Notes: generated from the letters alone by a model not told the origin. A stretch of 64,000 nt of DNA from an uncultured Pseudomonadota bacterium (GCA_949290295.1 CASERH010000001.1:67969-131968); one strand, 5' to 3'. Shown: positions 3,227 through 39,162, counted from the stretch's first letter. Translations and numbers: made by a program.

Positions 3227-3955
3227 ATGGAAAACAAATCATATTCACAAACAGCAGCCTCCGCCTCTATTAGTGAGGGTCTGCGCCAATATATGATAAA
3301 AGTTTATAACTTTATGGCGGCAGGATTGTGCCTCACCGCTTTGAGTGCCTATATTATTGGCAACACCTCTTTACTGGGACTGTTCTTTAACGTTAATCAG
3401 CTCGGCCAAGTTACAGGTATGTCTGGATTCGGCTGGTTAATGTTTATTGCTCCGCTGGTAATGGTTTTTGCCTTTGGATGGGTGCTAAATAGAGGAACAT
3501 CTGCTCAGGTTCAAGGCTTGTTTTGGGCCTATGCGGCAGTTATGGGAGCATCTCTGACGCCGATTCTCTTGGCTTATACCGGTGCCAGTGTTGCCAGGGT
3601 TTTCTTAATCACAGCCGGCACCTTTGGCGCCATGAGCCTCTATGGCTACACCACCAAAAAAGATTTAAGCGGTATGGGCTCTTTTTTAATGATGGGCTTG
3701 TTTGGCATCATCATTGCCATGATTGTTAACATCTTCATGAAAAGCCCCGGTGTTGACTATGCTATTTCCATTTTAGCCGTTGGCATCTTCGTTGGCCTGA
3801 CTGCTTATGATACTCAAAGAATCCGCGATATGTATTATGAAGGAGATAGTAGCGAGATAGCCACCAAAAAAGCTATTTCCGGTGCTTTGTCACTGTATCT
3901 TGACTTCATTAACATGTTCATTTACCTGTTGCGTTTCTTTGGAGATCGCAGATAA
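3227..3955 (+). CDS. Bax-inhibitor-1/YccA family inner membrane protein
   Basis: Seven hydrophobic segments. The N-terminal YMIKVYNFMAAGL and C-terminal DFINMFIYLLRFFG are typical of the BI-1/YccA family. Confidence 0.7.
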   Translation: MENKSYSQTAASASISEGLRQYMIKVYNFMAAGLCLTALSAYIIGNTSLLGLFFNVNQLGQVTGMSGFGWLMFIAPLVMVFAFGWVLNRGTSAQVQGLFWAYAAVMGASLTPILLAYTGASVARVFLITAGTFGAMSLYGYTTKKDLSGMGSFLMMGLFGIIIAMIVNIFMKSPGVDYAISILAVGIFVGLTAYDTQRIRDMYYEGDSSEIATKKAISGALSLYLDFINMFIYLLRFFGDRR

Positions 3956-3973
3956 ACGAATTTGAAGAAAAAA

Positions 3974-4004
3974 GATCCCGCCGATTTGGCGGGATTTTTT
4001 TATT
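3974..4004. terminator. Bidirectional Rho-independent terminator
   Basis: GATCCCGCC-gattt-GGCGGGAT hairpin flanked by an A-run and a T-run. It sits between convergent genes and overlaps the stop of the minus-strand gene. Confidence 0.7.
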
Positions 4005-5079
4005 TCTGAAACATAACTAAAGAACTTCCTTCTTGTTCTTGAGATTGTTTTAGAGCCTCTATGGCTTGTTCAATCAATTTTTTTGCCGACCGCGCCGGAT
4101 TAGGAAAGACGCTGGCGCCAACACTAACAGTTAGGTCGTGAGTCGTAAAATTATCGCTCACGCCTTCTCTAAGCAAGGCCATAAGTTTTTTTATCTCCAC
4201 ATCCAAATCATACCCGCTCATCAAATCAGGCATCAATATCCAAAAATGATATTTCAGCCCTCTGGCCACGGTATAATTTTTTTTCAAACTCAAAACCAAA
4301 GTGTTGGCAAGTTTTTTGATAACAAATTCTTCCAAATGAAGTTTTCTGAAAGATTCAATATTGTCAACATTAACCCCAACAACGGCAATCAAATCTTTCG
4401 GCAAACGAGAATCCTTATAATTCTCATTGTTAACAGCCATTTGAACCCTGTCTTCAAACAAGAAGAAATTTGGCAAACCTGTCAAATCGTCATATAAATT
4501 ATTGAAAAACGGTTTACTGCTTTTGTTTTGGTGATTTCCCACTAAAATAAAAGAAAAATGCTTAGTATCAGGCAAATAGATGGCCTGGAATTCAACCGGA
4601 ATAACTTTCCCCTTGAGAGAGCGTAATCTAATTTTTTGCTTTTGAGCAGAGGTCAGCATCTCGCCGATACTTGAGGTCATAAGATTCCAATCTTGCTTAT
4701 CAACAAACGAAAGGAAGGGCTCGCCCAAAGAAGACTTCATATCTTTGATGTCCAACATTTGCATTGCCGTAAAGTTAAAATAAACGGCTTTATCATCGCT
4801 GACCATAACAATCGGCCGCTCAGAGCTATTCATAACTAAGTTAACGATATCGTTAAGATTGACATCCAAATCTTGCCAAAAATACTTTTCCTTAATTTTT
4901 TTCTTTTGTTGTTTTGGCAACTCTGTTTGAGGGGGCTGAGCATTAAAATTTTCAAGGTCATTAAGAACAATGCCATACTGATCTGCCTTTTTGAGCAAGG
5001 CCAAATCAGCCTTTGCGGCAGAAACAAACCCTGCATGCCCCTCAAGATTTTCAATATTTAAAGAACTATCTTCACTCAT
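4000..5079 (-). CDS. Signalling protein with a degenerate GGDEF (diguanylate-cyclase-like) domain
   Basis: YDDLTGLPNFFLFEDRV is the GGDEF domain N-terminal signature, but no intact GG(D/E)EF motif is present. The N-terminal half looks like a PAS/sensor domain. Confidence 0.5.
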   Translation of the reverse strand: MSEDSSLNIENLEGHAGFVSAAKADLALLKKADQYGIVLNDLENFNAQPPQTELPKQQKKKIKEKYFWQDLDVNLNDIVNLVMNSSERPIVMVSDDKAVYFNFTAMQMLDIKDMKSSLGEPFLSFVDKQDWNLMTSSIGEMLTSAQKQKIRLRSLKGKVIPVEFQAIYLPDTKHFSFILVGNHQNKSSKPFFNNLYDDLTGLPNFFLFEDRVQMAVNNENYKDSRLPKDLIAVVGVNVDNIESFRKLHLEEFVIKKLANTLVLSLKKNYTVARGLKYHFWILMPDLMSGYDLDVEIKKLMALLREGVSDNFTTHDLTVSVGASVFPNPARSAKKLIEQAIEALKQSQEQEGSSLVMFQK

Positions 5080-5206
5080 CTTATTTATCTGTTTTTTTGT
5101 AGTTTAGAATCTATTTATCAAAAACACAATGCCAAAATCTTTGTATTTTTTTAATAATATTAGAATATACTCCGTTCATCTATGCAAAAAAAGAAAGAAT
5201 TCAACC

Positions 5207-7279
5207 ATGGCGGAAGAAGAAAACACCAAAGAAAATTCAGAAGAGTCTCTTTCTGCGGCGGCAGAAGAAGATGCTGTTTTGGCACCAGCGGAAACTTTAG
5301 ATAAAGATACACAAGAAAAAGCTGTTTCTGACAACACATATTTGGTAAAAGAACGTTTTGAAATTGACTATAGTCATCCTTTGCCGGAATTAAACGCCAA
5401 CGGGGCCAAGGCCTACATGGTCAAAGATAAAATAAATCCACAGCGTGAACTTTTTGCCCTTCTGTGCGACAACAACTTTCCGCCCAGACTTTCCATGTTG
5501 CCCTATTTGAAATCAATAGAACACCCGAATTTGCTAAATCTGGTGGATTACAGTGTTGTAGACTATAAGCCGGAAAAGACAATGAACATGGCATTAATAT
5601 ACAGTCGTCCGACCGGCCCAAAGGTCTCCCAGGCAATCCCAAAAGAAAAACCAAGCTTTGAAAAATTTAAATCCTTGGTACTGTCGTTAGTTTCCGGCTG
5701 TGAAGCTCTGAAAAACTACAATCTAACTCACCGAGCCATTCGCATGGACAACATCTTTTTTAAAGATGAGAAGGGCTCTGAACTCGTGTTAGGGGATTGC
5801 GCAGCATCATTTCCTGCCCTATACCAGCCTAATGCCTATGAAACCCAGGAGAGCCTATTATGCATACCCCAAGGACGCGGGCAAGGAAGCAGCGGTGACG
5901 ATGTTTACTCTGCCGGAGTTGTTTTATTAGGGCTTGCTTTAGGCCACGAAATTGCTCCCAAATGTTCGTGTCCGGAGTTACAGCGTCTAAAACTAAAAAA
6001 AGGTTCTTTGGCAACCCTTTCTGATGGAGAAAAAATTCCCGGTCAAATTATGCCTCTTTTGAAAGGAATGTTAGAAGACAGTATTGAAAGTCGTTGGAAC
6101 AGCTCGCAAATTTACAATTATCTTGACGGAAAGAATCCAACCTTTTCCTCTGAGCCAGGAGATCGCTCCATGAGAGCCTTAAGCATTGGCGGAGAAAAAT
6201 ATTACACGGCCAAATCCGTAGCTTTGGCAATATTGGAAAATCCGGCAGACGGCCTAAGTGTTATTAAAAGCGGCAAACTTTTGGAGTGGATAAAGAACGG
6301 CCTTGAAAACGAAAAACTCCACAATAAAATAGAACGATTAATCAACGCAGAGAAAGAAGGAGAATCAAACAGATTGCTTTTGCCGCAAATCTGCATTTAC
6401 TTAGACTATAGTTTGCCGATCAAGTGTGATACCATGTATGTTTTTCCGAGTGGTCTTCCCAAAGCCATATTCCATAGCTTAAAAACAGGTAGATCTTTGG
6501 AGCCCTTCCACCAAATTTTATCTGGAGATTTAATCAAAATCTGGTACCAAGAGCAACCCTATTTACACGCTCCTGCAAACAGTAATGAATTTAGAGTTTA
6601 TCTAAGCCGCAATGATTATGGTTATGGCATCGACCGTATCATTTATGATTTTGACGATGATTTGCCCTGTACCAGTCCCCTAATTGGCAAAGAGTTTGTA
6701 AACACCCCATCAAAATTATTAAAAGCTCTGGATTCGAACTATTCAGAAAACAAAGAAGACAAGCCATACGACAAAAATATCATAGCCTATCTGCGCAGCA
6801 AGATGGGCAAAAAAATAGATGGCATATTAACCGATATCAACGCCAATCAAGATGCCCTACAAATATCGGCTGTCATGAGATTGTATGCCAATATTCAAAA
6901 CAAAACAGGTCCGGTTCAACTTCTAAACCTGACCAAATGGTTGGTAAAAACTGCCAAGCCGATTATAATGAATTATCATAATACGAAATACCGTAAATAT
7001 TTGGAACAAGAGACCATAAAAATTTCCAAAAGCGGCAAAATTATAGAGCTTTACGAAATTCTTGAAAACGAGGAGGCTCAAAAGAAGGACCGAACGGAAT
7101 ACGCTTCTGTTTTGAAAAAAGTGAACATTTTGGTAACCGAACGCAACCGTATTTTGCAAGGGAGCCCGAAACTAGATGAAGAATCCAGAGAGCTGGCTAT
7201 AAAATTTGGCTCGATTCTTTCAATTTTAACCATGTTGAGTTCATTTATTCTCAGCATTATTTATTGGGTGTTTAAATGA
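5207..7279 (+). CDS. Eukaryotic-like Ser/Thr protein-kinase-fold protein (likely pseudokinase) with a C-terminal TM anchor
   Basis: HRAIRMDNIFF aligns to the HRDLKPENILL catalytic loop, with the catalytic Asp replaced by Ala. GDC replaces DFG. DDVYSAGVVLLGL matches subdomain IX (DxWSxG). The C-terminal FGSILSILTMLSSFILSIIYWVF is hydrophobic. The ORF track starts at 5129, but that N-terminus translates an AT-rich promoter, and MAEEEN at 5207 is more plausible. Confidence 0.55.
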   Translation: MAEEENTKENSEESLSAAAEEDAVLAPAETLDKDTQEKAVSDNTYLVKERFEIDYSHPLPELNANGAKAYMVKDKINPQRELFALLCDNNFPPRLSMLPYLKSIEHPNLLNLVDYSVVDYKPEKTMNMALIYSRPTGPKVSQAIPKEKPSFEKFKSLVLSLVSGCEALKNYNLTHRAIRMDNIFFKDEKGSELVLGDCAASFPALYQPNAYETQESLLCIPQGRGQGSSGDDVYSAGVVLLGLALGHEIAPKCSCPELQRLKLKKGSLATLSDGEKIPGQIMPLLKGMLEDSIESRWNSSQIYNYLDGKNPTFSSEPGDRSMRALSIGGEKYYTAKSVALAILENPADGLSVIKSGKLLEWIKNGLENEKLHNKIERLINAEKEGESNRLLLPQICIYLDYSLPIKCDTMYVFPSGLPKAIFHSLKTGRSLEPFHQILSGDLIKIWYQEQPYLHAPANSNEFRVYLSRNDYGYGIDRIIYDFDDDLPCTSPLIGKEFVNTPSKLLKALDSNYSENKEDKPYDKNIIAYLRSKMGKKIDGILTDINANQDALQISAVMRLYANIQNKTGPVQLLNLTKWLVKTAKPIIMNYHNTKYRKYLEQETIKISKSGKIIELYEILENEEAQKKDRTEYASVLKKVNILVTERNRILQGSPKLDEESRELAIKFGSILSILTMLSSFILSIIYWVFK

Positions 7280-7755
7280 TAAAACCATTAAGAACGCGCC
7301 AACCGGCTAAAGCGAAAATAAAGTTCAATCTTTTGCAAAAGATTCTACTTCTTTTGGGATTGGTTATTTTGGTAATAACGGCCTTACCGGCAGTTGTAAT
7401 CTTAATCATCGGACTGCTGCCGACAATCACAATTATCTTGATAGATTCAAAAAATACCAGCAAACTGACAATGGTAGGTTGTTTTAATTTGGCCGGAGTT
7501 TTTGTTTGCCTGATGAATATTTTTAATCAATTTAACCTTAATCATGCCATTACAATTCTTGGCAATGTTTTCAATATAATCATCATGCTGGGAGCCGCGG
7601 CTTTAGGAATGGTTCTATATTATGAGTTGCCAAATCTTTTTCTGTTCATCTCCAAGGCATCAGCCCAGAGACGCCTTCGCAACATTGACAACAAGCTCGA
7701 AAAAATTGCCGATGAGTGGGGGCAAGAATGTATTGCTGAAGTAAATCAAAAATAA
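7276..7755 (+). CDS. Polytopic membrane protein, translationally coupled to the kinase-like gene
   Basis: ATGA start/stop overlap with the upstream gene. At least four TM helices. No family recognised. Confidence 0.4.
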   Translation: MIKPLRTRQPAKAKIKFNLLQKILLLLGLVILVITALPAVVILIIGLLPTITIILIDSKNTSKLTMVGCFNLAGVFVCLMNIFNQFNLNHAITILGNVFNIIIMLGAAALGMVLYYELPNLFLFISKASAQRRLRNIDNKLEKIADEWGQECIAEVNQK

Positions 7756-7758
7756 ATC

Positions 7759-7789
7759 CAAAGCCGCGTTTTAAAACACGGCTTTTTCA
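7759..7789 (+). terminator. Rho-independent terminator
   Basis: AAGCCGCG-ttttaaaa-CACGGCTT hairpin followed by TTTTT. Confidence 0.55.
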
Positions 7790-7790
7790 A

Positions 7791-8669
7791 TTAAGATTTC
7801 ATGCCTTCAATTGTTTTGGCAATTTTTTTAATTGAATTCAATTCTATTTGCCGCACACGCTCTTTAGAAATATTATAAAGTTTGCTCAAATCATCAAGTG
7901 TCACAGCTTTCTCGAATAATCTGCGCTTAAATAAGATATCTCTTTCGCGTTTATTTAGGCACACAAGAGCCTTATTAAAAAGTTCACGGCGGTATTTCAT
8001 CGTTTCGGCATAAGCCAAAACCTCTTCTTGATTGGGCTTCGTATCAGCAATAAAATCCATCCATTCGCTACCACTATCAGAAGAAGCATCTATTTGAGTA
8101 TTAAGAGAGCCATCATGAGATTTAAGACGCATATTCATATCCGTCACATCTTGCACGCTGACATCCAAAGATTCGGCAATGCCATTTAACACCTTTGGAG
8201 AAAGCTCTCTGTCATCGGTAACATTGAGCTTATTTTTTATTTTTCGTAAATTAAAAAACAACTTTTTCTGTGCCGCGGTCGTCCCTATTTTAACCAACGA
8301 CCACGAGTTTAAGATATATTTTTGGATAGAAGCTTTAATCCACCACAAGGCATAAGTTGAAAATCTAAACCCCTTATCCGGTTCAAATTTTTCAATAGCA
8401 TAAAGAAGTCCGATGTTTCCCTCAGAAATCATCTCTGCTGCAGATAGGCCATAACCTCTGTATTTGGCAACAACTTTTACCACCAAGCGCAAATGAGAGG
8501 TGACCAAAACTTTAGCTATTTCCGGATTTTTTGTTTTCTGATATTGAACAGCCAGGTTGTATTCTTCATCCTGAGCCAAGATAGGATATTGCCTGATTTT
8601 TTGCAAATATCTGACCATGTTAAACTCTGGAGAAAAGTCCGCTCCACCAAGATTTTGGACATCATCCAT
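7791..8669 (-). CDS. rpoH: RNA polymerase sigma-32 heat-shock factor RpoH
   Basis: Sigma-70 family regions 2 and 4. The RpoH box QKKLFFNLRK is present. Confidence 0.85.
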   Translation of the reverse strand: MDDVQNLGGADFSPEFNMVRYLQKIRQYPILAQDEEYNLAVQYQKTKNPEIAKVLVTSHLRLVVKVVAKYRGYGLSAAEMISEGNIGLLYAIEKFEPDKGFRFSTYALWWIKASIQKYILNSWSLVKIGTTAAQKKLFFNLRKIKNKLNVTDDRELSPKVLNGIAESLDVSVQDVTDMNMRLKSHDGSLNTQIDASSDSGSEWMDFIADTKPNQEEVLAYAETMKYRRELFNKALVCLNKRERDILFKRRLFEKAVTLDDLSKLYNISKERVRQIELNSIKKIAKTIEGMKS

Positions 8670-8821
8670 GTTCGTTTCACTCCTGTTTAAGCATTCAGTC
8701 GTTCAACGTACGAGTTCTGGTCTCAAAAAAATCGACGCTTATAGGGTTGCGCTAAATTAGCAAAAGCGCAACCTATCCTTTAGTATGAGAAAGGTTGAAA
8801 AATTCCATTTTGAGTTGCTGT

Positions 8822-9793
8822 TTAGATATTTTCTAAAACACCCATCAATTGTTTGAAATCTGTTGGAAAATAAGATTCAAAAAACATTTGTTTTTGAGTT
8901 TTTGGATGAATAAAGCCGAGGCTTTTGGCGTGCAGGGCTTGCCTTGGAAAATTATTAATAAAATCTCTTTTATCTGAAGGAATGGCCTTATTCGTAATTT
9001 TTTTTGCTTTAACATAGAGCTGGTCACCCACAAGATTACAACCGATTCTGCTCATATGCACTCTGATTTGGTGGGTTCGTCCGGTTTCAAGGTTACATTT
9101 AACAAGAGAAGCAACATTCTTGTAATTTTTAATGGTTTGATAGTGTGTCACGGCATGTTTGCCATTTTTTTGCACAACGGCCATTTTCTTGCGATCATAA
9201 GGACTACGACCTATATCGGCGTCAATTATACCATTAAGCGGGTTAGGCACCCCAAAAACAACGGCAAAATAGGTTCTTTCAATAGAGTGTTCGGCAAACT
9301 GAGCGCACAAATGCTGATGCGCGGCATCATTTTTTGCCACCACCAAAAGACCTGAAGTATCTTTATCTATCCGATGCACAATTCCCGGACGTTTCACCCC
9401 GCCGATACCGGAGAGATCTTTGCAATGGTAGAGCAAGGCATTAACCAAGGTTTTATCTGGAGCTCCTGGAGCCGGATGAACGGTCATTCCGGCAGGTTTA
9501 TTAACCACGATAATGTCTTCGTCTTCATAGATGATATCAAGCGGGATATTTTGAGGTTGCGGTTCGGCATCAACTGCAGGAGGAACAAGAATTTGGTAGA
9601 TGTCACCTTCCTTTACCTTAAAAGAGTTATCTCCAATGGTGTCTTCGTCACAAGTAACATTACCCAAGGCAATAAGACGCTGCACTTGGGAGCGAGAAAC
9701 ATCAGGAAAACAATCGCTTAAAAACTTATCGATTCTTTTTCCCTTATAATCTTTATTAACCATTGGTGTGGTATAAATAACCGCATCAGACAT
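8822..9793 (-). CDS. rluD: 23S rRNA pseudouridine synthase, RluD/RluA family
   Basis: S4 domain at the N-terminus. Catalytic motif HRIDKDTSGLLVVAKN. Adjacent to rpoH, as in many alphaproteobacteria. Confidence 0.8.
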   Translation of the reverse strand: MSDAVIYTTPMVNKDYKGKRIDKFLSDCFPDVSRSQVQRLIALGNVTCDEDTIGDNSFKVKEGDIYQILVPPAVDAEPQPQNIPLDIIYEDEDIIVVNKPAGMTVHPAPGAPDKTLVNALLYHCKDLSGIGGVKRPGIVHRIDKDTSGLLVVAKNDAAHQHLCAQFAEHSIERTYFAVVFGVPNPLNGIIDADIGRSPYDRKKMAVVQKNGKHAVTHYQTIKNYKNVASLVKCNLETGRTHQIRVHMSRIGCNLVGDQLYVKAKKITNKAIPSDKRDFINNFPRQALHAKSLGFIHPKTQKQMFFESYFPTDFKQLMGVLENI

Positions 9794-29444: not shown

Positions 29445-30788
29445 ATGGATAATCAAACAATATATGCTTTATCGACGGTTTTTGGAAAATCCGGTGTAGC
29501 GGTGATACGTATATCCGGAGATAAGGCCTTAGAAGCCGTTAAGGCAATGACCAATTTGGATGTTGAAAATATAAAACCAAGATATGCTTATTTTGCATCT
29601 TTGCATCATGCAAAAGATAAGAGGGAGTTAGATAAAGCCCTTTTATTGTACTTTAAGGCACCAAATTCTTTTAGCGGTGAAGATATCGTCGAATTTCAAA
29701 CTCACGGTTCCAGAGCCGTTATATCGTCAATCATGGATAGTTTATCTTGTATAGATGGTTTTAGATTAGCAGAGCCCGGAGAATTTTCCAAGAGAGCTTT
29801 CTATAACGGCAAAATGGATTTAACAGAGGCTGAAGGACTGGCAGATTTGATAGATGCCGAAACCTCCGAGCAGCAAAAATACGCCATAAGACAGATGGAA
29901 GGAGGTTTAAAGAATTTATATGAGGGATGGAGAGAAGGTTTATTAAAAATCCTTGCCCATTTAGAAGCTTATATAGATTTTCCTGAAGAAGAAATTCCTC
30001 AAAATATAATTTCTGATATGAAAAACACTGTATTTAAACTAAAACAAAACATCAAAGCACACTTGTCTGACAATTCAGCAGGGGAGAGGCTTAGAGAAGG
30101 CTTCAGGGTAGTTGTTATAGGTCCGCCAAACGCCGGAAAATCAAGCTTAATTAACACAATAGTCAAAAGAGAGGCTGTTATCGTGTCAGATATTGCCGGC
30201 ACCACCAGAGATGCCATAGATATTTATCTGGATTTAGGTGGATATCCCGTTGTATTCACAGATACGGCTGGTTTGAGAGAAACAGAGGAAATAATAGAGA
30301 AAAAAGGCATAGAAATAGCCCAAAGCAAAATAGCAGAAGCAGATTTGGTAATATGTTTGTTTGATGGATGTAAAGACTCTGTTCAACTGTTTGATAATAT
30401 TAAAAAATCATTTAAAGACAAAATGTTATTTGTAGCAAATAAAAGTGATAAATTAACATCTGAACAATGTTCAAAGATTAAAAAAGAAGGATGTTTGATT
30501 ATCTCTGCCAAAGATTATGAAAGTGTCAAAACGCTTCTTAACGCCATAGAAGATCGTATAAAATCTGTTTTCAGCTCAAGTTCCGGAGCCCTGATAACGC
30601 GCCGACGTTATAGAGAGGCCTTGCAAAAAACAGTAGAAAATTTGGAGCAGTTTAGTTTTGACAAAGAAATAGAGCTAACAGCGGAAGATATTCGCTTAGC
30701 AGCCAGAGAGCTTGGCAAAATCACCGGCAGAATAGAAGTAGAAGAAATATTAGATAAGATATTCGGCTCGTTTTGTATCGGAAAATAA
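29445..30788 (+). CDS. mnmE: tRNA modification GTPase MnmE
   Basis: G-domain GPPNAGKSSL, DTAG. C-terminal CIGK motif. Confidence 0.9.
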   Translation: MDNQTIYALSTVFGKSGVAVIRISGDKALEAVKAMTNLDVENIKPRYAYFASLHHAKDKRELDKALLLYFKAPNSFSGEDIVEFQTHGSRAVISSIMDSLSCIDGFRLAEPGEFSKRAFYNGKMDLTEAEGLADLIDAETSEQQKYAIRQMEGGLKNLYEGWREGLLKILAHLEAYIDFPEEEIPQNIISDMKNTVFKLKQNIKAHLSDNSAGERLREGFRVVVIGPPNAGKSSLINTIVKREAVIVSDIAGTTRDAIDIYLDLGGYPVVFTDTAGLRETEEIIEKKGIEIAQSKIAEADLVICLFDGCKDSVQLFDNIKKSFKDKMLFVANKSDKLTSEQCSKIKKEGCLIISAKDYESVKTLLNAIEDRIKSVFSSSSGALITRRRYREALQKTVENLEQFSFDKEIELTAEDIRLAARELGKITGRIEVEEILDKIFGSFCIGK

Positions 30789-30839
30789 TTTGACATTTAA
30801 GTGTTATATGGTTAGCTTTAGTCAAAACACTTAAATATT

Positions 30840-31214
30840 ATGCCTATGAAAAACGAATTATTGGAACAATTTCTTGCTGGTCAACCACAATATAATGTGG
30901 CAGAGCTTCAGGAGCAATTAAGCCGCTTTTATGACAGTAAAAAGATAGATGTATCTGACCTAAAAGAGGTTCTTAATTTTTTGGCCTCAGACCATAACGA
31001 CAAGAGTTATATCATGAAGATATATGACATAACCGGGAATTTTGAGCGCCAGGCTTATTTGTTAGATAAAGAGCGTCACGAAGGCAGATGGAGCTTTGAG
31101 CATATTGTTGTTTTTAACATTCTTGCCCATTGTGCACGCATAGAGCCGAGGCTGATTGTTGAAAAACTATCATATTTTCGTAAAATGCTCGAATATTTGA
31201 TAGGTAAGAAATAG
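30840..31214 (+). CDS. Hypothetical 124-aa protein inserted between mnmE and mnmG
   Basis: No family. Preceded by a 12-bp inverted repeat and followed by a terminator. Confidence 0.35.
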   Translation: MPMKNELLEQFLAGQPQYNVAELQEQLSRFYDSKKIDVSDLKEVLNFLASDHNDKSYIMKIYDITGNFERQAYLLDKERHEGRWSFEHIVVFNILAHCARIEPRLIVEKLSYFRKMLEYLIGKK

Positions 31215-31221
31215 CAAAGAA

Positions 31222-31259
31222 AAATCCGTTTCTCAAAAAAGAGAGGCGGATTTTTTTTA
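31222..31259 (+). terminator. Rho-independent terminator
   Basis: ATCCGTTTCTC-aaaaaa-GAGAGGCGGAT followed by T8. Confidence 0.6.
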
Positions 31260-31316
31260 TTGCAAAAAAGGAAAGGCTGTATTATAGCTTAGGCAATTGA
31301 AAAGAGGCAAAATTCT

Positions 31317-33167
31317 ATGACAAAAACAGAATATGATGTAATTGTTGTCGGTGGAGGCCATGCCGGATGTGAGGCCTGCGCAGCAGCAGCTCGTATGGGG
31401 GCTGATACCGCCTTGGTAACTCACAAGATTTCAACCATTGGCGAGATGTCCTGCAACCCGGCCATAGGTGGCCTCGGTAAAGGACATTTAGTAAGAGAGA
31501 TTGATGCGCTAGATGGATTGATGGGGCGTGTTATAGATAAAGCCGGCATACAATTTAGAATGCTCAATGCCTCAAAAGGTCCGGCAGTAAGGGGTCCCAG
31601 AGCTCAAGCAGACAGAGAGCTTTATAAAAAATATATGCTAGAGGCCCTAAGGGAGCAAAAAAATTTAGAGTTAGTAGAAGCCTCAGCAGAAGGTTTTATT
31701 GTTGAGAAAGGAAAAGTTTGCGGTGTAAAACTTGCAGACGGAAGAGAGCTGAGGGCCAAAGCGGTAGTATTGACCTCAGGTACTTTTTTGAACGGAATAA
31801 TGTTTATTGGCCACCAAACATATGTTGGGGGCAGGGTAAATGACATCAGCTGTACCGGTATAACACCGTATTTAAAGGATATGGGGCTAAAAGTAGGGCG
31901 CCTGAAGACAGGCACCCCTGCGAGGTTGAATGGTAAAACAATTAACTGGGATATTTTGGAATCCCAAGAGGGAGATAAAAATCCGCAAGCATTTTCTTTT
32001 TTGACTGAGAAGTTGAAAAACCCGCAGGTAAAATGCTACATCACGCACACAAATGAGAGAACGCACAAGATAATAAGAGATAATTTTTCGAAATGCGCAC
32101 TGTTTTCTGGGCTTATAACCGGCATCGGGCCAAGATATTGTCCTAGCATAGAAGATAAGCTGGTTAAATTTGCAGACCGCACCAGCCACCAAATATTTTT
32201 GGAACCGGAGGGGTTAAATACGGATGTTGTTTACCCAAACGGAATATCAACATCACTGCCGGCGGATGTTCAAGATCAGTTTATTCATACTATGGAGGGA
32301 TTGGAAAATGTAGAGATTTTGCGCCCGGCCTATGCCATAGAATATGACTATGTAGATCCGCAAGAATTAGATAGCAGATTGGCTGTAAAAAAGGTTCCGG
32401 GGCTATTTTTGGCTGGTCAGATTAATGGAACAACGGGCTATGAAGAGGCTGCCGCACAAGGTCTTTTGGCTGGAGTGAATGCCGCTTTATCTGCTTTGGA
32501 AAGAGATGATATTTTCACTGTAGACAGAGCCGAGGGCTATATGGGTGTGATGGTTGATGATTTAATCACCAAAGGGGTTGATGAGCCATACAGAATGTTT
32601 ACATCTCGTTCTGAATATAGATTGTTTTTAAGAGCCGATAACGCAGATCAGCGTTTGACAGAGAAGGGCTACAAAATAGGCTGTGTCGGGGAATATAGAT
32701 ACAGTGTATTTAAAGCCAAAGAGAAGGCTATAAATGACTTTAGAAAAGCAGCAGAGGCTGAAAATATTCTTCCTATTGAATTAGAAAAAAGAGGAGTAAA
32801 CATCAAACAAGACGGTGTCAGAAGAAGTACTTTTAATGTTATGTCTTATCACGATGTTTCACGTGAAACCATCAATAATATCTGGCCACAGTTCAAAAAT
32901 GTTGCGGATGATATTTATGAGCAAGTGGAGATAGAGGCGCGTTATTCTGGCTATATCAAACGCCAAATGGCGGATATAGAAGTTTTCAAAAAAGATGAAA
33001 ATTTGCGCTTAAAAGAAGACATAGATTATAGCAAAATAGGAGGTTTGTCGCGCGAGATGGTGGCAAAGCTTTCCAAAGTGCGCCCATCAACAATAGGAGA
33101 GGCCTCGAGAATTCCCGGTGTTACCCCTGCGGCAATCACAGCCATTTTGGGATATGTAAAAAAATGA
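31317..33167 (+). CDS. mnmG: tRNA uridine 5-carboxymethylaminomethyl modification enzyme MnmG (GidA)
   Basis: FAD-binding [13 protein letters not shown] and full-length GidA similarity. Confidence 0.9.
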
Positions 33168-33778
33168 TACCTTCTTTGCAAAAAGCCAAACAGCTATGGC
33201 AAGAGGGAATAGATTTTAGATTAAAACAACCCCACGATTGGCCCATTTATAAAGAATATGTTTTTCATACCACCAGCGTGGCAGAGTCAGCTCAAAAAAT
33301 AGCAGAAAAAACACCGTATTTAAACCCTGAAAAGGCGTATATTGTTGGCTTGTTGCATGATTATGGCAAAAAATACGATGAAAATTTGATTAGCAGATTT
33401 CATGCTCAAACAGGCTATGAAGAATTACTAAAATTAGGTTATAATGAATGTGCGCGTATTTGCTTGACTCATAGTTTTCCAAATAAAAATTTTAACAACA
33501 AGTATTATGCCTCATATCGGCCGGAATGGTTGAACTGGGCTCATCAAAAGTTGGATGAAATAGAAGAATATGATGATTATGACCGCTTAATACAGCTATG
33601 CGATATGTTTTTTGAGGGAATGTCCAAAGTCGGTTTTGAAGAACGCTTTGCCGGCATAAGAAAACGCTATGGTTTGAGTGAAGAACAAACGGTAGAACAA
33701 GAAAAATATACCAAGATGAACAAAGATTATTTTGATGAACTTTGCAAAAAAGATGTTTACAAGATATTAAATATATAG
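33164..33778 (+). CDS. HD-domain phosphohydrolase-like protein, paralog 1
   Basis: His...(~30 aa)...[10 protein letters not shown] motif. ATGA overlap with the mnmG stop. Confidence 0.5.
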
Positions 33779-33814
33779 CTGTTAGAATAGCTCCCCTAAA
33801 CAAGGGAGTCACAG

Positions 33815-34426
33815 ATGTTGCCGGATGAAGAAATAGTCAAAAAGCTTTTCGATTCTATTTGCGAAAAGACGAGAGAACCAAATATTGTAAGAGGGTGTGC
33901 GGCAGATGAATCTGTTCACCACTACATAGATGTTTCTCAGTGTGCAGAAAAGATAGCTATGCATTGTGGTTTAGATAGCCACAAGGCCAAAATTTTGGGG
34001 CTTTTTCATGACTATGGTGAATATATAGAAAGAACCGTTCCCGGCACTTTTCACGGCACAGCCGGTTATGATGAGATGATGATGCTTGGTTATGATGAAA
34101 TCGCCAGAGTGTGCCTAACTCACAGTTTTTGGGAAGGAGTGTACGACCCAGAGCATTTTTCTTATGATAAAAAAGAAGTTGCGCGAGCAGGGATGCTAAT
34201 ATCAAAAATGGAGTTGGATGACTATGACTATTTAATCCAACTAAGTGACATGCTTTGTTGCCACAGAACGTTTGTGAAACTGGAAGAAAGAATTGCTTAC
34301 ATTGTCAACAAATATAAAAGAAGCTCCAAAGAGGCAGAGAACATGAAAAAAGCGGCAGAAAAGTTAAAAGAACGATTTGATAAGCTTTGCAAGCAAGATA
34401 TTTATGAGCTGTTGGAGATAAAATAA
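33815..34426 (+). CDS. HD-domain phosphohydrolase-like protein, paralog 2
   Basis: GLFHDYGE and CLTHSF motifs shared with paralog 1. A tandem duplicate. Confidence 0.5.
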   Translation: MLPDEEIVKKLFDSICEKTREPNIVRGCAADESVHHYIDVSQCAEKIAMHCGLDSHKAKILGLFHDYGEYIERTVPGTFHGTAGYDEMMMLGYDEIARVCLTHSFWEGVYDPEHFSYDKKEVARAGMLISKMELDDYDYLIQLSDMLCCHRTFVKLEERIAYIVNKYKRSSKEAENMKKAAEKLKERFDKLCKQDIYELLEIK

Positions 34427-35232
34427 TGCAAGACTTTACCTATCACTCACATAATTCCAGCCAAGGAATAGCAGATGGGCACAATACCTGTGATGAGATG
34501 TTGTCAAGGGCTGAGGAAATAGGTTTTTCAGAGATTGGTGTTAGTAACCATTTTGTTTATCATCCCAATATTTCTGAAGAACATTCTATGTTTTTTAGTA
34601 ATCTCACAAAGGCTCTGGACTACGCCAAAAAGGATATTGAGCAGACAAAGGAAGCAGCCAGTCGCCACAAGATAAAAGTTTATGCAGGGTTTGAGGTTGA
34701 CTTTTTCCCATCAAAAATGTGGCGAAATGCATTTGAGAAGATGTTAAAAGAGGTAAAGCCGGATTATGTTATTGGTTCTAATCACAACGCCTTTAGCAAA
34801 GATGAGCAAAATATTTACAATATTTGGCGGCTAGGCGGAAAGCCGATAAAAGATGAAAGTATGAAAGAATATCTTAGAAATCATTGGCAAAACATCATAG
34901 ATTGCATAAATAGCGGCTATTTTGCTTTTATAGCTCATTTTGACTTAGCATCAAATTTAGGTCTCTGCACAGAATCGGAGTGGGATGATTGGAAGTGGAA
35001 AGTGATAGAGGCTTTTAAGCAAACAAAAACCCCATTTGAAATAAACACCAACGGCATCAGACGCTGTGGAATTCCAAGCCCAGATTGGTGGATTGTAAAG
35101 GAGCTGGTGAGGGCGGGGGTTCCGACTCTCATCAGTGATGATGCACACAATACTGATTGTTTAGGACAATACTTCGCCGAGGCAGAATCCACACTTGCAG
35201 AACTTGGCTGTAAAAAGAGATTTAAGTTTTGA
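34426..35232 (+). CDS. PHP-domain (polymerase/histidinol-phosphatase-like) metal-dependent phosphoesterase
   Basis: N-terminal YHSHNSSQGIADGH (the PHP HxH...DG motif). 1-nt stop/start overlap (TAATG) with the previous gene. Confidence 0.5.
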   Translation: MQDFTYHSHNSSQGIADGHNTCDEMLSRAEEIGFSEIGVSNHFVYHPNISEEHSMFFSNLTKALDYAKKDIEQTKEAASRHKIKVYAGFEVDFFPSKMWRNAFEKMLKEVKPDYVIGSNHNAFSKDEQNIYNIWRLGGKPIKDESMKEYLRNHWQNIIDCINSGYFAFIAHFDLASNLGLCTESEWDDWKWKVIEAFKQTKTPFEINTNGIRRCGIPSPDWWIVKELVRAGVPTLISDDAHNTDCLGQYFAEAESTLAELGCKKRFKF

Positions 35233-35359
35233 TAATTTGATTCAAAGAACAGTGTCTAACTAATTGAAATAAGAGTCTATTTTATAAGTGTCAGAATAAG
35301 GTGTTTATAACTCAATTTTTTATGTTTTAAATTTTTCATAAAAATTATAAAAATATCTT

Positions 35360-35986
35360 ATGAAAAATTTCTGCGAAAAATACAATGTTTCACGTGAAAC
35401 ATTTGACAAGTTAAAAACCTACCAAGAGCTTCTTTTGTCTTGGCAGCAAAAATTTAATTTGGTCGGTTCAGCCACACTGGAAGATGCCTGGAACCGTCAT
35501 TTTTTAGACTCTGTTCAGCTATTTTCTTTGATACCTGAAAGTGCCAAAGTTTTGTATGATTTTGGCTCTGGAGCTGGGTTTCCGGGAATGGTGCTGGCAA
35601 TTATGGCCAATGAAAAATTGCCGGATTTAGAAGTTAGTTTAGTTGAGAGCACAGGAAAGAAAACACTGTATTTAAACGAGGTTAAGGCGCAGACCAACAC
35701 AAAAGTAAATATCATAAGTGATAGAATCGAAAAAATTCCCACCCAAAAGGCTGATGTCATTACCTCAAGAGCCATGGCCTCATTAAATGAGTTGTTGGGT
35801 TATGCTCTTCGCTTTTGTAAGGAAGAAACAATTTGTATTTTTCCCAAAGGTAAAAAATATGCCGAGGAATTGGCAGAAGCTCACCGCCACTGGAAATTTA
35901 AGTGCCAAATTTTACCCAGTGAGCAAAGCCAAGAGGGAAGAATTTTAGTTATAACCAAGTTAAGCAAACTTAAAGGAGAAAAGTAG
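35360..35986 (+). CDS. rsmG: 16S rRNA m7G527 methyltransferase RsmG (GidB)
   Basis: SAM-binding DFGSGAGFPG and overall GidB similarity. The N-terminal VSRETFDKL is typical. Confidence 0.85.
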   Translation: MKNFCEKYNVSRETFDKLKTYQELLLSWQQKFNLVGSATLEDAWNRHFLDSVQLFSLIPESAKVLYDFGSGAGFPGMVLAIMANEKLPDLEVSLVESTGKKTLYLNEVKAQTNTKVNIISDRIEKIPTQKADVITSRAMASLNELLGYALRFCKEETICIFPKGKKYAEELAEAHRHWKFKCQILPSEQSQEGRILVITKLSKLKGEK

Positions 35987-36766
35987 ATGCCGAGAATTTT
36001 AGCTGTTGCCAACCGCAAGGGAGGAGTCGGAAAAACCACGACAACGGTCAATGTTGCCACAGCCATGGCCGCTGCCGGTAAAAAAGTTTTGGTGGTAGAT
36101 TTGGATCCTCAAGGCAACGCTTCAACTTCAATGGGAATAAATAAAAAAGGGCGCATGGCTTCAAGTTATGAAGTCTTGTTGGGCGAAAAAAGATTAACGG
36201 ATGCTGTTGTTTGGACAGAGATTCCCAATTTTTCGCTGGTTCCTTCTTCTCCTGACTTGGCCGGCGCGGAGGTTGAGCTGGTTGATATGAAAAACAGAGA
36301 GTTTGCTCTCAAAAAAGCTTTGAAAAGAGACGCGGTTAACTACGACTATATTTTGATAGATTGTCCCCCTTCATTGAGCTTGGTGACAATTAATGCGCTC
36401 GTTGCCGCAGATGCTGTTATTGTGCCGCTGCAATGTGAATTTTTGGCTCTAGAGGGCGTTACTGATCTAATTCGTAACATTAATCAAATAAAGAAGAAGT
36501 TTAATCCATCTTTGGCTTTGCATGGCGTTGTGCTGACAATGTATGACAAGCGCAACAATCTAAGCCAGATGGTAGAAGATGATGTCCGTCATTTCTTTGG
36601 CAAAAAGGTTTATAATACGGTTATTCCGCGGAATGTCAGAATTTCTGAAGCCCCCTCACACGGCAAGCCGGTATTGTTGTATGATTTCAAATGTCCGGGT
36701 TCTCAGGCCTATATCAGCCTCACCGGAGAAGTATTGAAGAGAGAAAAGGAATTAATTGCATGTTAG
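35987..36766 (+). CDS. parA: Chromosome partitioning ATPase ParA
   Basis: Deviant Walker A KGGVGKTT. Confidence 0.9.
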   Translation: MPRILAVANRKGGVGKTTTTVNVATAMAAAGKKVLVVDLDPQGNASTSMGINKKGRMASSYEVLLGEKRLTDAVVWTEIPNFSLVPSSPDLAGAEVELVDMKNREFALKKALKRDAVNYDYILIDCPPSLSLVTINALVAADAVIVPLQCEFLALEGVTDLIRNINQIKKKFNPSLALHGVVLTMYDKRNNLSQMVEDDVRHFFGKKVYNTVIPRNVRISEAPSHGKPVLLYDFKCPGSQAYISLTGEVLKREKELIAC

Positions 36767-37755
36767 ATAATGATTTAGATGAGCTGTTGAACGATGATTC
36801 TGTTCACACCAACCAGGCCTCTCACAAAAGAAAAAGTTTGGGAAGAGGGCTGGGCGCTCTACTGGGCGATGATTTGGAAACCGAAATCAACACAGAAATA
36901 AAACCAACTGACAGCATAAGTGTTGATGATATTATTCCAGGAAAATATCAGCCGCGCACGGAGTTTGATAAGGAAGCTCTGCAATCCTTGGCAGATTCAA
37001 TCAAAGAAAAGGGCGTCTTACAACCTCTTTTGGTACGCCACCAAGGAGATAAATATGAACTGATAGCCGGAGAACGCCGTTGGCGGGCGGCAAAAATAGC
37101 CGGATTACAAGAGGTTCCGGTTGTTATCAAAGATTTGAATGATCAAGAGGTTTTAGAGGCTGCTCTGGTTGAAAACATCTTGCGTGAGAATTTATCAGCC
37201 ATAGAAGAGGCAGAAGGTTACCAGCGGCTTATAAATGAGTTTGCCCATACCCAAGAGGCGTTGTCTCAGATTGTGGGTAAATCTCGCAGCCATATAGCTA
37301 ATACTTTGCGCCTGTTGTCTTTACCGGCAGATGTTCAGGAGTTTGTAAAAGAAGGCAAACTCTCCGCCGGCCATGCCAGAGCTCTGGTTGGGCTGGAAAA
37401 CGCGAGTTCTTTAGCCAAACAGATAATAGCCAAAGATCTTAATGTTCGCCAGGTAGAAGATTTGGTTTCGCGCCAAAAAGCTCCCAAACCGGCTAAGGAA
37501 AAAACAGAAAGAAATTCTGATATTGCCGACATAGAAAGACAACTCGTAAAAAGCTTGGGCCTAAGAATTAAGATTAGCCCCAACAAACAAGGAGGCGGCA
37601 AAGTGGTTCTGCAGTATTCATCGGTAGCAGAGTTAGATATGATTATAGAGACATTGGAGCAAAAACGCCGCGGGGAAACTTCTCAGAACACTGTATTTAA
37701 AGCTGAGGAGCCTGTAGCATCAAACGATAAATTTTCAATAAAAATTGTAGACTAA
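36760..37755 (+). CDS. parB: Chromosome partitioning protein ParB
   Basis: ParB box GERRWRAA and HTH. The ATG at 36760 overlaps the parA stop. The ORF-track start at 36691 is probably upstream of the true start. Confidence 0.85.
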   Translation: MLDNDLDELLNDDSVHTNQASHKRKSLGRGLGALLGDDLETEINTEIKPTDSISVDDIIPGKYQPRTEFDKEALQSLADSIKEKGVLQPLLVRHQGDKYELIAGERRWRAAKIAGLQEVPVVIKDLNDQEVLEAALVENILRENLSAIEEAEGYQRLINEFAHTQEALSQIVGKSRSHIANTLRLLSLPADVQEFVKEGKLSAGHARALVGLENASSLAKQIIAKDLNVRQVEDLVSRQKAPKPAKEKTERNSDIADIERQLVKSLGLRIKISPNKQGGGKVVLQYSSVAELDMIIETLEQKRRGETSQNTVFKAEEPVASNDKFSIKIVD

Positions 37756-37767
37756 GGACAAACTAAA

Positions 37768-38004
37768 ATGACTATACTAGATAAGATGTTGGAAAACTGT
37801 GAAAAAGCAGGCTACGCCACAACCAAGAACGTAAAAAAAATAGCTAATGCTAAACAAGTTATGTTTGGCGAGGCCGAGTGGCAGCGCTGTCCATGTGACG
37901 GCAACAATCCGGCGCGTTACTGCATATCAGAGACCTGCCGACAGGATATAGAAAGAGACGGTGAGTGCCATTGCCACTGTTATTGCAAAAAAGACATTGC
38001 TTGA
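37768..38004 (+). CDS. Small cysteine-rich protein of 78 aa
   Basis: CPCDGNN...C..ETC......GECHCHCYC metal-binding pattern. No family. Confidence 0.35.
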   Translation: MTILDKMLENCEKAGYATTKNVKKIANAKQVMFGEAEWQRCPCDGNNPARYCISETCRQDIERDGECHCHCYCKKDIA

Positions 38005-38009
38005 GAAAA

Positions 38010-38042
38010 AGAAAGCCCCGTTTCCTGCGGGGTTTCTTTTTA
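38010..38042 (+). terminator. Rho-independent terminator
   Basis: GAAAGCCCCG-tttcct-GCGGGGTTTC followed by TTTT. Confidence 0.6.
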
Positions 38043-38148
38043 AGGGAATATTTACCAAAAAAGGTTATTGTAACAAAAAAAGATTTGATTAAATAAGCAC
38101 ATATATGCTTTAATTGTAACAGCTAAAACAAACCGATAGGGGCTTACC

Positions 38149-39162
38149 ATGGTTTTCTTAAAAAGAGTATTGTTGGGATTAGGTGCTTTATTTTTGATTT
38201 TTCTGGGCGGAGCAGGAACTAGGAGCAACAGTGTATTTGTCCAAGGCGGCGGTTTTTTGGGGCTTATCATTGGGCTGGTTGTTTTATACATTTTTGCCAA
38301 GATGGCTTGGCGGGCCATGGGGTGTCTGCCTTCATTATTTTTAATTGCCGCAATAATTGTCTTTATTCTTTACGCCATAGGAGCCTTTAGTGACGGTTTG
38401 GGCGGTGTCGGCAAGAATGTAAAAAGCTTTTTAGGGCAGGGTATGGCATCATCTCAAAGCAGCATGGCTTCTGCAAAGATCAACCTGCTGGATGAAGAGG
38501 AGTTTGATGTGCCGATTTCAGAAAGTTTCTCTCCGGCAGCTGAAGAAGAAATAGTGATTGAAGAACAGGTAGCACAGCCGCAACAACCGCAACAGGTTCA
38601 AGAGGAAAGCTTTTTTGATAAATTGTTTGGAGGCTCTTCATCAAACAATCAGGCAGCAACATTCAACCCAAAAAATTATCCGGCCATTTACTCAACCGCT
38701 AAAGTTATAAGCGGTGATACCCTAGTTATAAGCGGTCATTACTTTCGGCTTTTCGGTATAGATGCGCCTGAAAACAACCAAACCTGCGCGGATGGAAATG
38801 GTCGTCCATACCATTGTGGACAGCAGGCAGCGGCATGGTTGAAGAGTTGGTTGCAAGATAATGAGTTAGAGTGCCGGGTTATTCAAAGAGATACAAGTGG
38901 CAACATGGTAGGCGTTTGCTCACTGGGAGCCTATGATATTGGTGCGGCTTTGGTAAATGCCGGATGGGCTGTTGTTTACAGCAAACATACAGATATCTAT
39001 ACACCCTACCAGACACAAGCCCAAAATAATGGTAGAGGTTTGTGGCAGGGAGAGTTTTACATGCCCTGGGATTGGCGCAAAATTCAGGCTCGCAAACCCA
39101 AAATCAAGGTGATAAACCAAAAACCCAAACGCAAAAGAACATTAATAAATCCGCTAGGCTAA
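38149..39162 (+). CDS. Membrane-anchored staphylococcal-nuclease (SNase/thermonuclease)-like nuclease
   Basis: N-terminal TM helices and a Q/P-rich linker. The C-terminal domain has GDT...RLFGIDAPE...G.......D.YGR...GLW SNase signatures. Confidence 0.6.
   Translation: MVFLKRVLLGLGALFLIFLGGAGTRSNSVFVQGGGFLGLIIGLVVLYIFAKMAWRAMGCLPSLFLIAAIIVFILYAIGAFSDGLGGVGKNVKSFLGQGMASSQSSMASAKINLLDEEEFDVPISESFSPAAEEEIVIEEQVAQPQQPQQVQEESFFDKLFGGSSSNNQAATFNPKNYPAIYSTAKVISGDTLVISGHYFRLFGIDAPENNQTCADGNGRPYHCGQQAAAWLKSWLQDNELECRVIQRDTSGNMVGVCSLGAYDIGAALVNAGWAVVYSKHTDIYTPYQTQAQNNGRGLWQGEFYMPWDWRKIQARKPKIKVINQKPKRKRTLINPLG

Follow-up and report, generated by a model that had tools for sequence, protein, structure and literature searches.

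Three genes for predicted phosphoesterases separate mnmG from rsmG in an uncultured Pseudomonadota bacterium, and the locus raises the question whether they entered this place as a singular insertion or belong there, and what their products may do. The window, that is the whole stretch of 64,000 nt that was analysed (GCA_949290295.1, CASERH010000001.1:67969-131968), carries the locus on its + strand. The upstream anchor is mnmG at 31317-33167, encoding the tRNA U34 5-carboxymethylaminomethyl (cmnm5) modification enzyme (PF01134 GIDA, E=4.5e-169), the downstream anchor is rsmG at 35360-35986, encoding the 16S rRNA 7-methylguanosine (m7G) methyltransferase (PF02527 GidB, E=3.2e-43). Between them, the list of open reading frames (ORFs) holds three intact genes: HD1 (33164-33778, 204 aa; PF01966 HD, E=4.4e-9), HD2 (33815-34426, 203 aa; PF01966 HD, E=6.5e-6) and PHP (34426-35232, 268 aa; PF02811 PHP, E=1.2e-14). 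All three products scored above the Pfam cut-offs, HD1 with 37.1 bits and HD2 with 26.9 bits versus 22, PHP with 55.4 bits versus 26.4 and a coverage of 163 of the 164 profile positions. The profile check thus confirmed, at superfamily level, the initial annotation, which had assigned the genes to the metal-dependent phosphoesterase families HD, HD and PHP from short motifs. These motifs, LHDYGK or FHDYGE together with CLTHSF, were found in the translations, as GLLHDYGK and ARICLTHSF in HD1 and as GLFHDYGE and ARVCLTHSF in HD2, and the PHP translation contains FTYHSHNSSQGIADGH. We consider it well supported that this HD/PHP block is an ancient, vertically inherited operon module, specific to a clade of uncultured gut Alphaproteobacteria.

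The HD/PHP block between mnmG and rsmG

The usual state of the gene pair was established on loci that were gathered independently of the HD genes, through an rsmG profile in metagenomes. Fifty-seven of these loci hold both mnmG and rsmG, and in 53 of them the two genes are separated by a gap of 30-221 nt; their mnmG products are 47-73% identical to that of the window. The pair is normally contiguous in the rsmG-collected loci, as had been claimed, and in the window it is interrupted by the HD/PHP genes. In this control set, the gene order HD-HD-PHP was carried by L088 and L090, whose mnmG products are 79-80% identical to that of the window. L101 (mnmG 74%) has a single divergent PHP gene (5038-5862, 32% identity) and no HD gene between mnmG and rsmG, and L091 (mnmG 73%) has no insert there (5826-6001); these two loci mark the edge of the trait. 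The control finds the insert in close relatives only; it has to be seen as a shared trait of a clade rather than as an event in this genome.

A second sample was obtained by a scan with an HD profile over one genome per GTDB species, followed by tblastn searches with nine proteins of the window. It comprises 38 complete mnmG-to-rsmG intervals, the window included; as they were gathered via the HD gene, they show the positions of HD genes and not the fraction of the lineage that carries them. All 38 derive from uncultured gut Alphaproteobacteria, 'Candidatus Scatocola' among them, represented by metagenome-assembled genomes (MAGs) from sources that include human, deer, chicken and mouse, and their mnmG products are 70-98% identical to that of the window. 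Apart from the window, 37 species-level genomes and two more metagenome loci have HD/PHP genes in this place. In the layout of the 38 intervals, parAB follows rsmG. The number of HD domains per interval is one in six loci, two in 24 and three in eight, the number of PHP genes is zero in six loci, one in 29 and two in three. With the HD paralogs named after their clades in the tree described below, the order A-B-PHP of the window is the commonest (12 of 38). The initial annotation had presented the block as a notable insertion; this part was not sustained, the synteny comparison having found HD and PHP genes at this position in the relatives, under ordinary annotations.

The age of the block is also reflected in its composition and in its substitution pattern. 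GC content and GC content at third codon positions (GC3) of HD1, HD2 and PHP are inside the range of the flanking genes. The ratio of non-synonymous to synonymous substitution rates (dN/dS) was 0.055-0.145 for the three genes versus two close relatives (HD1 0.09-0.12, HD2 0.07-0.15), similar to rsmG, which shows all three coding sequences to be under purifying selection. A recent horizontal transfer or a mobile element was ruled out by composition, conservation over the loci and dN/dS.

The three genes are packed in a manner that indicates translational coupling behind mnmG. The TGA stop codon of mnmG and the ATG of HD1 overlap as ATGA, HD1 and HD2 are separated by 36 nt with AAGGGAG ahead of the HD2 ATG, and HD2 and PHP share 1 nt in TAATG; the two overlaps that had been described are thus present in the sequence. 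In the 38 intervals, the overlap of four nucleotides (ATGA) between mnmG and the first gene of the cluster occurs in 19 loci, and an overlap of stop and start codons in 19 of 35 HD-to-PHP junctions. Co-expression of the HD/PHP genes with mnmG is likely from this arrangement.

The region between PHP and rsmG is of a different kind. This AT-rich spacer (35233-35359, 127 nt) was aligned for 24 loci; its length is 119-184 nt across the species, and blocks of its sequence are conserved though the flanking proteins are about 45-65% identical. These blocks comprise GANTC sites (GATTC or GAGTC) and the invariant TGTTTATAAC; in addition, a TATAAA-type block lies about 8 nt upstream of the rsmG ATG, a start codon that lacks a Shine-Dalgarno sequence. 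The reverse complement of the invariant block, TTATAAACA, has 8/9 matches to the DnaA-box pattern TTWTNCACA. The block also precedes rsmG in the insert-free relative L091 (about 5950-5990). As the spacer blocks are conserved and TGTTTATAAC is kept in L091, the HD/PHP genes appear to lie between the mnmG stop codon and a pre-existing control region of rsmG. The spacer is probably the regulatory or promoter region of rsmG itself, and it may act as an internal, possibly leaderless, methylation-sensitive promoter. A promoter scan yielded 17 promoter-like sites versus 23 expected from shuffled sequences, thus no enrichment. In L114, a relative of high GC content, the mnmG-rsmG spacer contains a perfect parS-like palindrome, TGTTTCACGTGAAACA, at about 2010-2030.

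On the + strand between 29200 and 38200, the sole terminator-like site is a hairpin at 38013-38035 with a 9-bp stem, five of its pairs being GC, that is followed by a T-run, a possible end of a long transcription unit. An Rfam scan of 30700-38300 gave zero matches. Co-transcription of the phosphoesterase genes with the RNA modification and partition genes, as proposed initially, holds in part: tight packing behind mnmG and the lack of a + strand terminator-like site before 38013 speak for it, but for rsmG and parAB it is qualified by the conserved spacer, which looks like a regulatory or promoter region of rsmG itself.

The HD and PHP proteins

Sequence comparison shows HD1 and HD2, which are 36% identical to each other, as two ancient paralogs of an uncharacterised HD subfamily. 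This subfamily comprises 2,343 database clusters at E<=1e-3, and species-representative genomes contain 581 or more stretches that match it. It occurs in gut Alphaproteobacteria and in gut Firmicutes. Its members are named 'HD domain-containing protein' or, generically, 'nucleotidyltransferase with HDIG domain' in the sources; the cultured plasmid-borne homologues are all annotated as 'HD domain-containing protein'. The HDIG model TIGR00277 (cut-off 27.6 bits) was matched by HD1 above the cut-off (30.9 bits) and by HD2 below it (20.2 bits). In a neighbour-joining tree, the alphaproteobacterial sequences fell into three paralog clades, termed A, B and C, and the Firmicutes sequences into one clade. 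HD1 belongs to clade A, which 36 of the 38 complete intervals contain; HD2 belongs to clade B, and clade C is absent from the window.

In 119 copies, the residues H35, H65, D66, H80, H103, D147 and R161 are kept wherever they are covered, H35 falling into an alignment gap in three clade-B copies. Six of these residues form the pattern H..HD..H..H..D, which is conserved in all four clades. The extended six-residue motif is diagnostic of dinuclear HD enzymes such as YqeK (PMC8177086), and in the HD proteins it is diagnostic of a putative two-metal site. Other positions vary with the clade. Position 32 is Tyr, Phe or Trp (Tyr32 in HD1), but Ser in clade B; position 69 is Lys in clade A, Arg in clade C and in the Firmicutes, and Glu in 15 of the 26 copies of clade B, among them HD2. 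HD2 thus differs from clade A at two candidate positions of the pocket, with Ser in place of Tyr32 and Glu in place of Lys69.

Three independent MAGs encode in-frame HD-HD fusion ORFs of 411-439 aa, two of them joining two clade A domains (L012, 6359-7624; L027, 6986-8221) and one joining clades A and C (L036, 6923-8242). By the Rosetta-stone argument, the fusions suggest that the HD paralogs associate as a dimer. A heterodimer rather than a homodimer is proposed since it is neighbouring paralogs that the three genomes join in a single polypeptide.

The AlphaFold2 model of HD1 has a predicted local distance difference test score (pLDDT) of 97.9. The top PDB sequence match of the HD proteins is the HDOD protein 3hc1, and further matches include the YqeK-family chains 8jja, 2ogi, 3ccg, 8wmy and 2o08; all PDB matches are confined to the stretch H..GLLHDYxK. 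Below their thresholds, NCBIfam models for YqeK, for a NadD-HD fusion and for DVU_1551 were matched. YqeK is the nearest characterised family found by sequence, a remote one. The HDOD model PF08668 scored HD1 with 27.2 bits (cut-off 22.9), only over the profile positions 92-132 of about 196 and overlapping a stronger HD match of the same clan; HD2 had no match to it. Neither HD1 nor HD2 matched the HD-GYP, PgpH or RelA/SpoT family models of Pfam and NCBIfam at E<=0.01, and the GYP tripeptide was not found in either sequence.

The PHP protein, modelled by AlphaFold2 with a pLDDT of 96.9, has in this predicted structure the fold of the HisJ/HisK histidinol phosphatases: Foldseek searches with the model retrieved 2yxo (E=1.3e-14, TM-score 0.75), 3dcp/6nlr (E about 1e-13) and 4gyf (E=1.2e-8). 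Nine positions, H7, H9, D17, H42, E90, H120, H171, D239 and H241, are invariant in 56 PHP homologues and are shown by this conservation as candidate ligands of a trinuclear metal site; presumably they correspond to the ligands of the trinuclear site in the Lactococcus enzyme. The scores to the NCBIfam models of the HisJ type were below the cut-offs, with 68.7 versus 90.2 for TIGR01856 hisJ_fam, 92.6 versus 202 for PRK07328 and 42.2 versus 133 for PRK08123. Relatives of the protein are named 'PHP domain-containing protein' or, by JGI, 'histidinol-phosphatase (PHP family)'.

Proposed function and its alternatives

The function that we favour, tentatively and at a little less than an even chance, is that of a remotely YqeK-like, dimeric pair of dinuclear HD diphosphatases or diesterases which acts together with a PHP phosphomonoesterase on a nucleotide-type substrate, as a housekeeping activity expressed with mnmG. 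YqeK-type HD enzymes are homodimeric, versatile diphosphatases with dinucleoside tetraphosphates (Ap4N), Np4-capped RNA, analogues of nicotinic acid adenine dinucleotide (NaAD) and 8-oxo-GTP as substrates (PMC13627108; PMC9426524). The HD paralogs would work as a dimer like YqeK, here as a heterodimer, and would cleave a phosphoanhydride or phosphodiester bond of the nucleotide-type substrate, for which dinucleoside polyphosphates, Np4-capped RNA, aberrant nucleoside triphosphates and dinucleotides may be candidates. The PHP enzyme would then take off the remaining phosphomonoester. Together they would form a phosphohydrolase pair with a housekeeping or 'house-cleaning' task, expressed with RNA-modification genes.

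Several observations weigh against this proposal. The YqeK equivalog model TIGR00488 has a cut-off of 70.15 bits and was matched by HD2 with 25.1 bits over about 40 residues and by HD1 not at all at E<=0.01. A Foldseek search with the HD1 model retrieved no solved structure at E<=1e-3. In YqeK, R18 stands three residues ahead of the first His of the motif, K54 in HDYxK and R133 six residues past the last Asp. These residues bind phosphate and are essential for the binding of diadenosine tetraphosphate (Ap4A) (PMC13627108); the clamp of R18 and R133 is without counterparts in the HD proteins, which have Tyr32 at the one place and no Arg near position 153 at the other. As both equivalents are missing, the substrate of the HD proteins may differ from Ap4A. 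PHP is absent from 6 of the 38 intervals, so that the HD step is not necessarily tied to the PHP step. The Firmicutes HD gene is solitary, in variable and unrelated neighbourhoods that give little functional signal.

The main rival is that PHP encodes the histidinol-phosphate phosphatase of the lineage, of the HisJ/HisK type, with the HD genes coding for housekeeping hydrolases unrelated to it and the shared position being without functional meaning. We regard this as unlikely, yet the identity of the best matches speaks for it: in sequence and structure they are all histidinol phosphatases (2yxo, 3dcp/6nlr, 4gyf), the HisJ models are the top NCBIfam matches, and the JGI name of the relatives is in agreement. 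However, every one of these curated cut-offs was missed, three intervals hold two PHP paralogs and six hold none, and the gene is found clustered with HD genes, in many cases with an overlap of stop and start codons. In the crude ORF calls of the 64-kb window, read over their first 70 residues, no his genes were evident. Of the roles suggested by the initial annotation, a nucleotide substrate is plausible, and a turnover module for second messengers is quite improbable on the present evidence. It would have the HD proteins degrade cyclic di-nucleoside monophosphates (c-di-NMPs), pGpG or (p)ppGpp, in line with an HD superfamily that includes HD-GYP, PgpH and SpoT or small alarmone hydrolases (SAH), with weak Foldseek likeness to a small alarmone hydrolase and to PgpH (TM-score 0.39-0.48) and with the Pfam HDOD match of 27 bits. 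But the specific models for HD-GYP, PgpH and RelA/SpoT remained unmatched and the GYP motif is absent, the HDOD and 3hc1 matches span no more than the generic stretch around H..HD, about 41 residues long, every Foldseek E-value is above 1e-3, and the proteins of about 204 aa are single-domain, without sensor, receiver or membrane domain. Least credible of all is that mnmG-rsmG is a hotspot in which a recent horizontal or mobile insertion, or else an island of anti-phage defence, has settled. Gene content and copy number of the interval do vary between species and the HD family is found in gut Firmicutes too; the reading is contradicted by a composition equal to that of the flanks, purifying selection, a layout conserved over 38 species-level loci with the orthologous clades A, B and C, and ORFs free of integrase, transposase or repeat features. 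As a defence system the block was rejected: PADLOC reported only marginal, generic Cas3-HD similarity for the HD proteins (E>=5e-4, at most 17 bits) and nothing for PHP, and searches for phage homologues were negative.

Additional genes in the intervals of some relatives invite a metabolic explanation. Six relatives encode, inside the mnmG-rsmG interval, a divergent enolpyruvyl transferase that is MurA-like and about 475 aa long, its gene abutting or overlapping the HD/PHP genes (L012, 4835-6286; L022, 7677-9101; L023, about 7676-9097; L027, 4125-5552; L047, 8096-9580; L088, about 3623-5032); these proteins scored 255-283 bits versus the NCBIfam MurA cut-offs of 297 and 393. NUDIX genes lie inside the interval of L012 (4223-4792) and L027 (3431-3997), and a fragment of an AAA_33 kinase gene in that of L047 (7621-7938). 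None of these genes is present in the window. Such genes could be the fuller form of a small-molecule pathway derived from a nucleotide sugar or a sugar phosphate, of which the window keeps the phosphohydrolase steps; an HD homologue closing a sedoheptulose-7-phosphate cyclase cluster on the plasmid pBb and an HD-HAD gene pair in Lachnospira eligens would fit as well. This is improbable, for the MurA-like gene is missing from most intervals and from the window and could be the ordinary murA of those genomes, and the HD-HAD adjacency is anecdotal. Similarly, it is a rather unlikely possibility that the HD array, with clades A, B and C and the A-A and A-C fusions, together with the HisJ-like PHP protein represents an undescribed pathway specific to gut Alphaproteobacteria, extended in some species by the MurA-like protein, NUDIX and a small kinase. 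In one form, a heteromeric HD enzyme would process an RNA-linked or nucleotide-derived metabolite tied to the substrates of MnmG and RsmG, in another, the route would make or degrade an enolpyruvyl-nucleotide or sugar compound. Weakly, the context hints point to small phosphorylated or nucleotide-type substrates.

Neighbouring genes and comparison with known systems

The co-directional run of genes starts with mnmE at 29445-30788, and parA (35987-36766) and parB (ending at 37755) follow directly on rsmG. Between mnmE and mnmG lies an unnamed ORF of 124 aa (30840-31214) that had no match in Pfam and NCBIfam; it is conserved with 85-87% in the closest relatives and with 30% in L008. In other relatives the mnmE-mnmG spacer holds an ORF of similar size, about 120 aa, that is not the same one and is likewise unannotated (L010, 4033-4404; L013, 2604-2954). 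Directly 3' of parB, a cysteine-rich ORF of 78 aa (CPCDG...CHCHCYC; 37768-38004) without a family match precedes the hairpin at 38013-38035. Downstream of the partition genes, 38149-39162 encodes a protein of 337 aa that has hydrophobic segments at its N-terminus and carries a staphylococcal-nuclease domain (PF00565, E=1.7e-12) at its C-terminus, and tsaE and an ORF resembling the C-terminal part of HPr kinase come after it. Two tandem paralogs of a YcgN-like cysteine-cluster protein are encoded at 1580-2020 and 2004-2480 of the window; in L044, the HD and PHP genes of the mnmG-rsmG interval are separated by a gene of the YcgN family (4482-4919).

Outside the Alphaproteobacteria, the HD homologue of the Bacillus bombysepticus plasmid pBb (L087, 1-6383; 32% identity) ends the sedoheptulose-7-phosphate cyclase cluster, which also contains genes for a ROK kinase, an aminotransferase, an acyltransferase, an oxidoreductase and TIM-barrel proteins; a HAD hydrolase gene follows the HD gene. 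A HAD hydrolase gene likewise comes after the HD homologue of Lachnospira eligens (L086, 4923-6208), for which the identity is 32% as well. As a functional clue this adjacency was dismissed, with two cases and HAD not among the recurring Firmicutes neighbours. In a Pfam survey of 105 Firmicutes neighbours, the only recurring families were NUDIX (3), AAA_18 (3) and AAA_33 (2); the function could not be deduced from this gene context, in which the neighbours do not cluster. A literature search for mnmG or rsmG in connection with HD or PHP domains found no paper.

The HD subfamily has a wide distribution among gut bacteria and carries only generic labels in the sources. HD1 combines a very confident predicted fold with the lack of a close solved structure, and the subfamily fails the curated YqeK model and leaves HD-GYP unmatched. 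In one poorly known lineage of gut Alphaproteobacteria, it has expanded to one to three paralogs, sometimes fused, that are fixed inside a gene pair which ranks among the most conserved of the sampled loci. These proteins might represent a functional analogue of ApaH or YqeK, in the turnover of Np4N or RNA caps, in a lineage without a known one, and may also illustrate how heteromers evolve among HD enzymes. The HD/PHP block could serve as a synteny marker for the gut alphaproteobacterial clade. If the enzymes are ordinary nucleotidases and a histidinol phosphatase, the locus would reflect a lineage-specific operon rearrangement only; if they belong to an undescribed pathway, it would mean more than generic house-cleaning.

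Among the known systems, YqeK (COG1713), the Firmicutes enzyme that hydrolyses Ap4A and other Np4N symmetrically, Ap4A to two ADP, shares most features with the HD proteins. Both are small, all-helical, single-domain HD proteins of about 190-205 aa, and the six-residue motif of YqeK (H21, H50, D51, H83, H109, D127) is present in HD1 and HD2. The segment GLLHDY(A/G)K is near-identical, the phosphate-contacting Lys is kept in HD1 (K54 to K69), and the last Asp is borne by a segment D-x-D-(K/R)-(L/V)-I...D. The genes of both sit in RNA- or ribosome-related operons, and YqeK is dimeric, as the HD-HD fusions suggest for the HD paralogs. The two extra histidines are spaced differently, however, and the stacking pair F135/F163 of YqeK is without an evident counterpart, whereas the HD proteins have the invariant R161 and an acidic DDYD motif. 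The structural similarity in Foldseek is weak (TM-score about 0.3-0.4, E>0.04), and the HD genes occur as one to three divergent tandem paralogs, while yqeK is a single gene beside nadD. The HDOD proteins (PF08668; 3hc1) gave the best single match both in PDB sequences and in Foldseek and have the stretch H...GLLHD(V/Y)G in common with the HD proteins, but only about 41 residues are matched; H80, H103 and D147, as well as the C-terminal half, are features of the HD subfamily alone. The PHP protein resembles the HisJ/HisK enzymes (2yxo, 3dcp/6nlr, 4gyf) in fold (TM-score 0.65-0.75), length and the nine conserved His, Asp and Glu positions; it differs in being only 17-24% identical to them, with scores below the HisJ cut-offs of NCBIfam, and in a gene that is linked to HD genes rather than to his genes and is duplicated or absent in some relatives.

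Known genes for Ap4A hydrolases are found, and co-transcribed, in operons for ribosome biogenesis or rRNA modification, as in rsmA-apaG-apaH of E. coli, where ApaH is a phosphatase of the PPP type, and in yqeH...nadD-yqeK-rsfS of B. subtilis. The enzyme families and the partner genes are others there, and the activity of the HD proteins is a predicted one. The arrangement is alike in that a hydrolase gene accompanies genes of rRNA modification or ribosome biogenesis, just as the HD genes lie between mnmG and rsmG.

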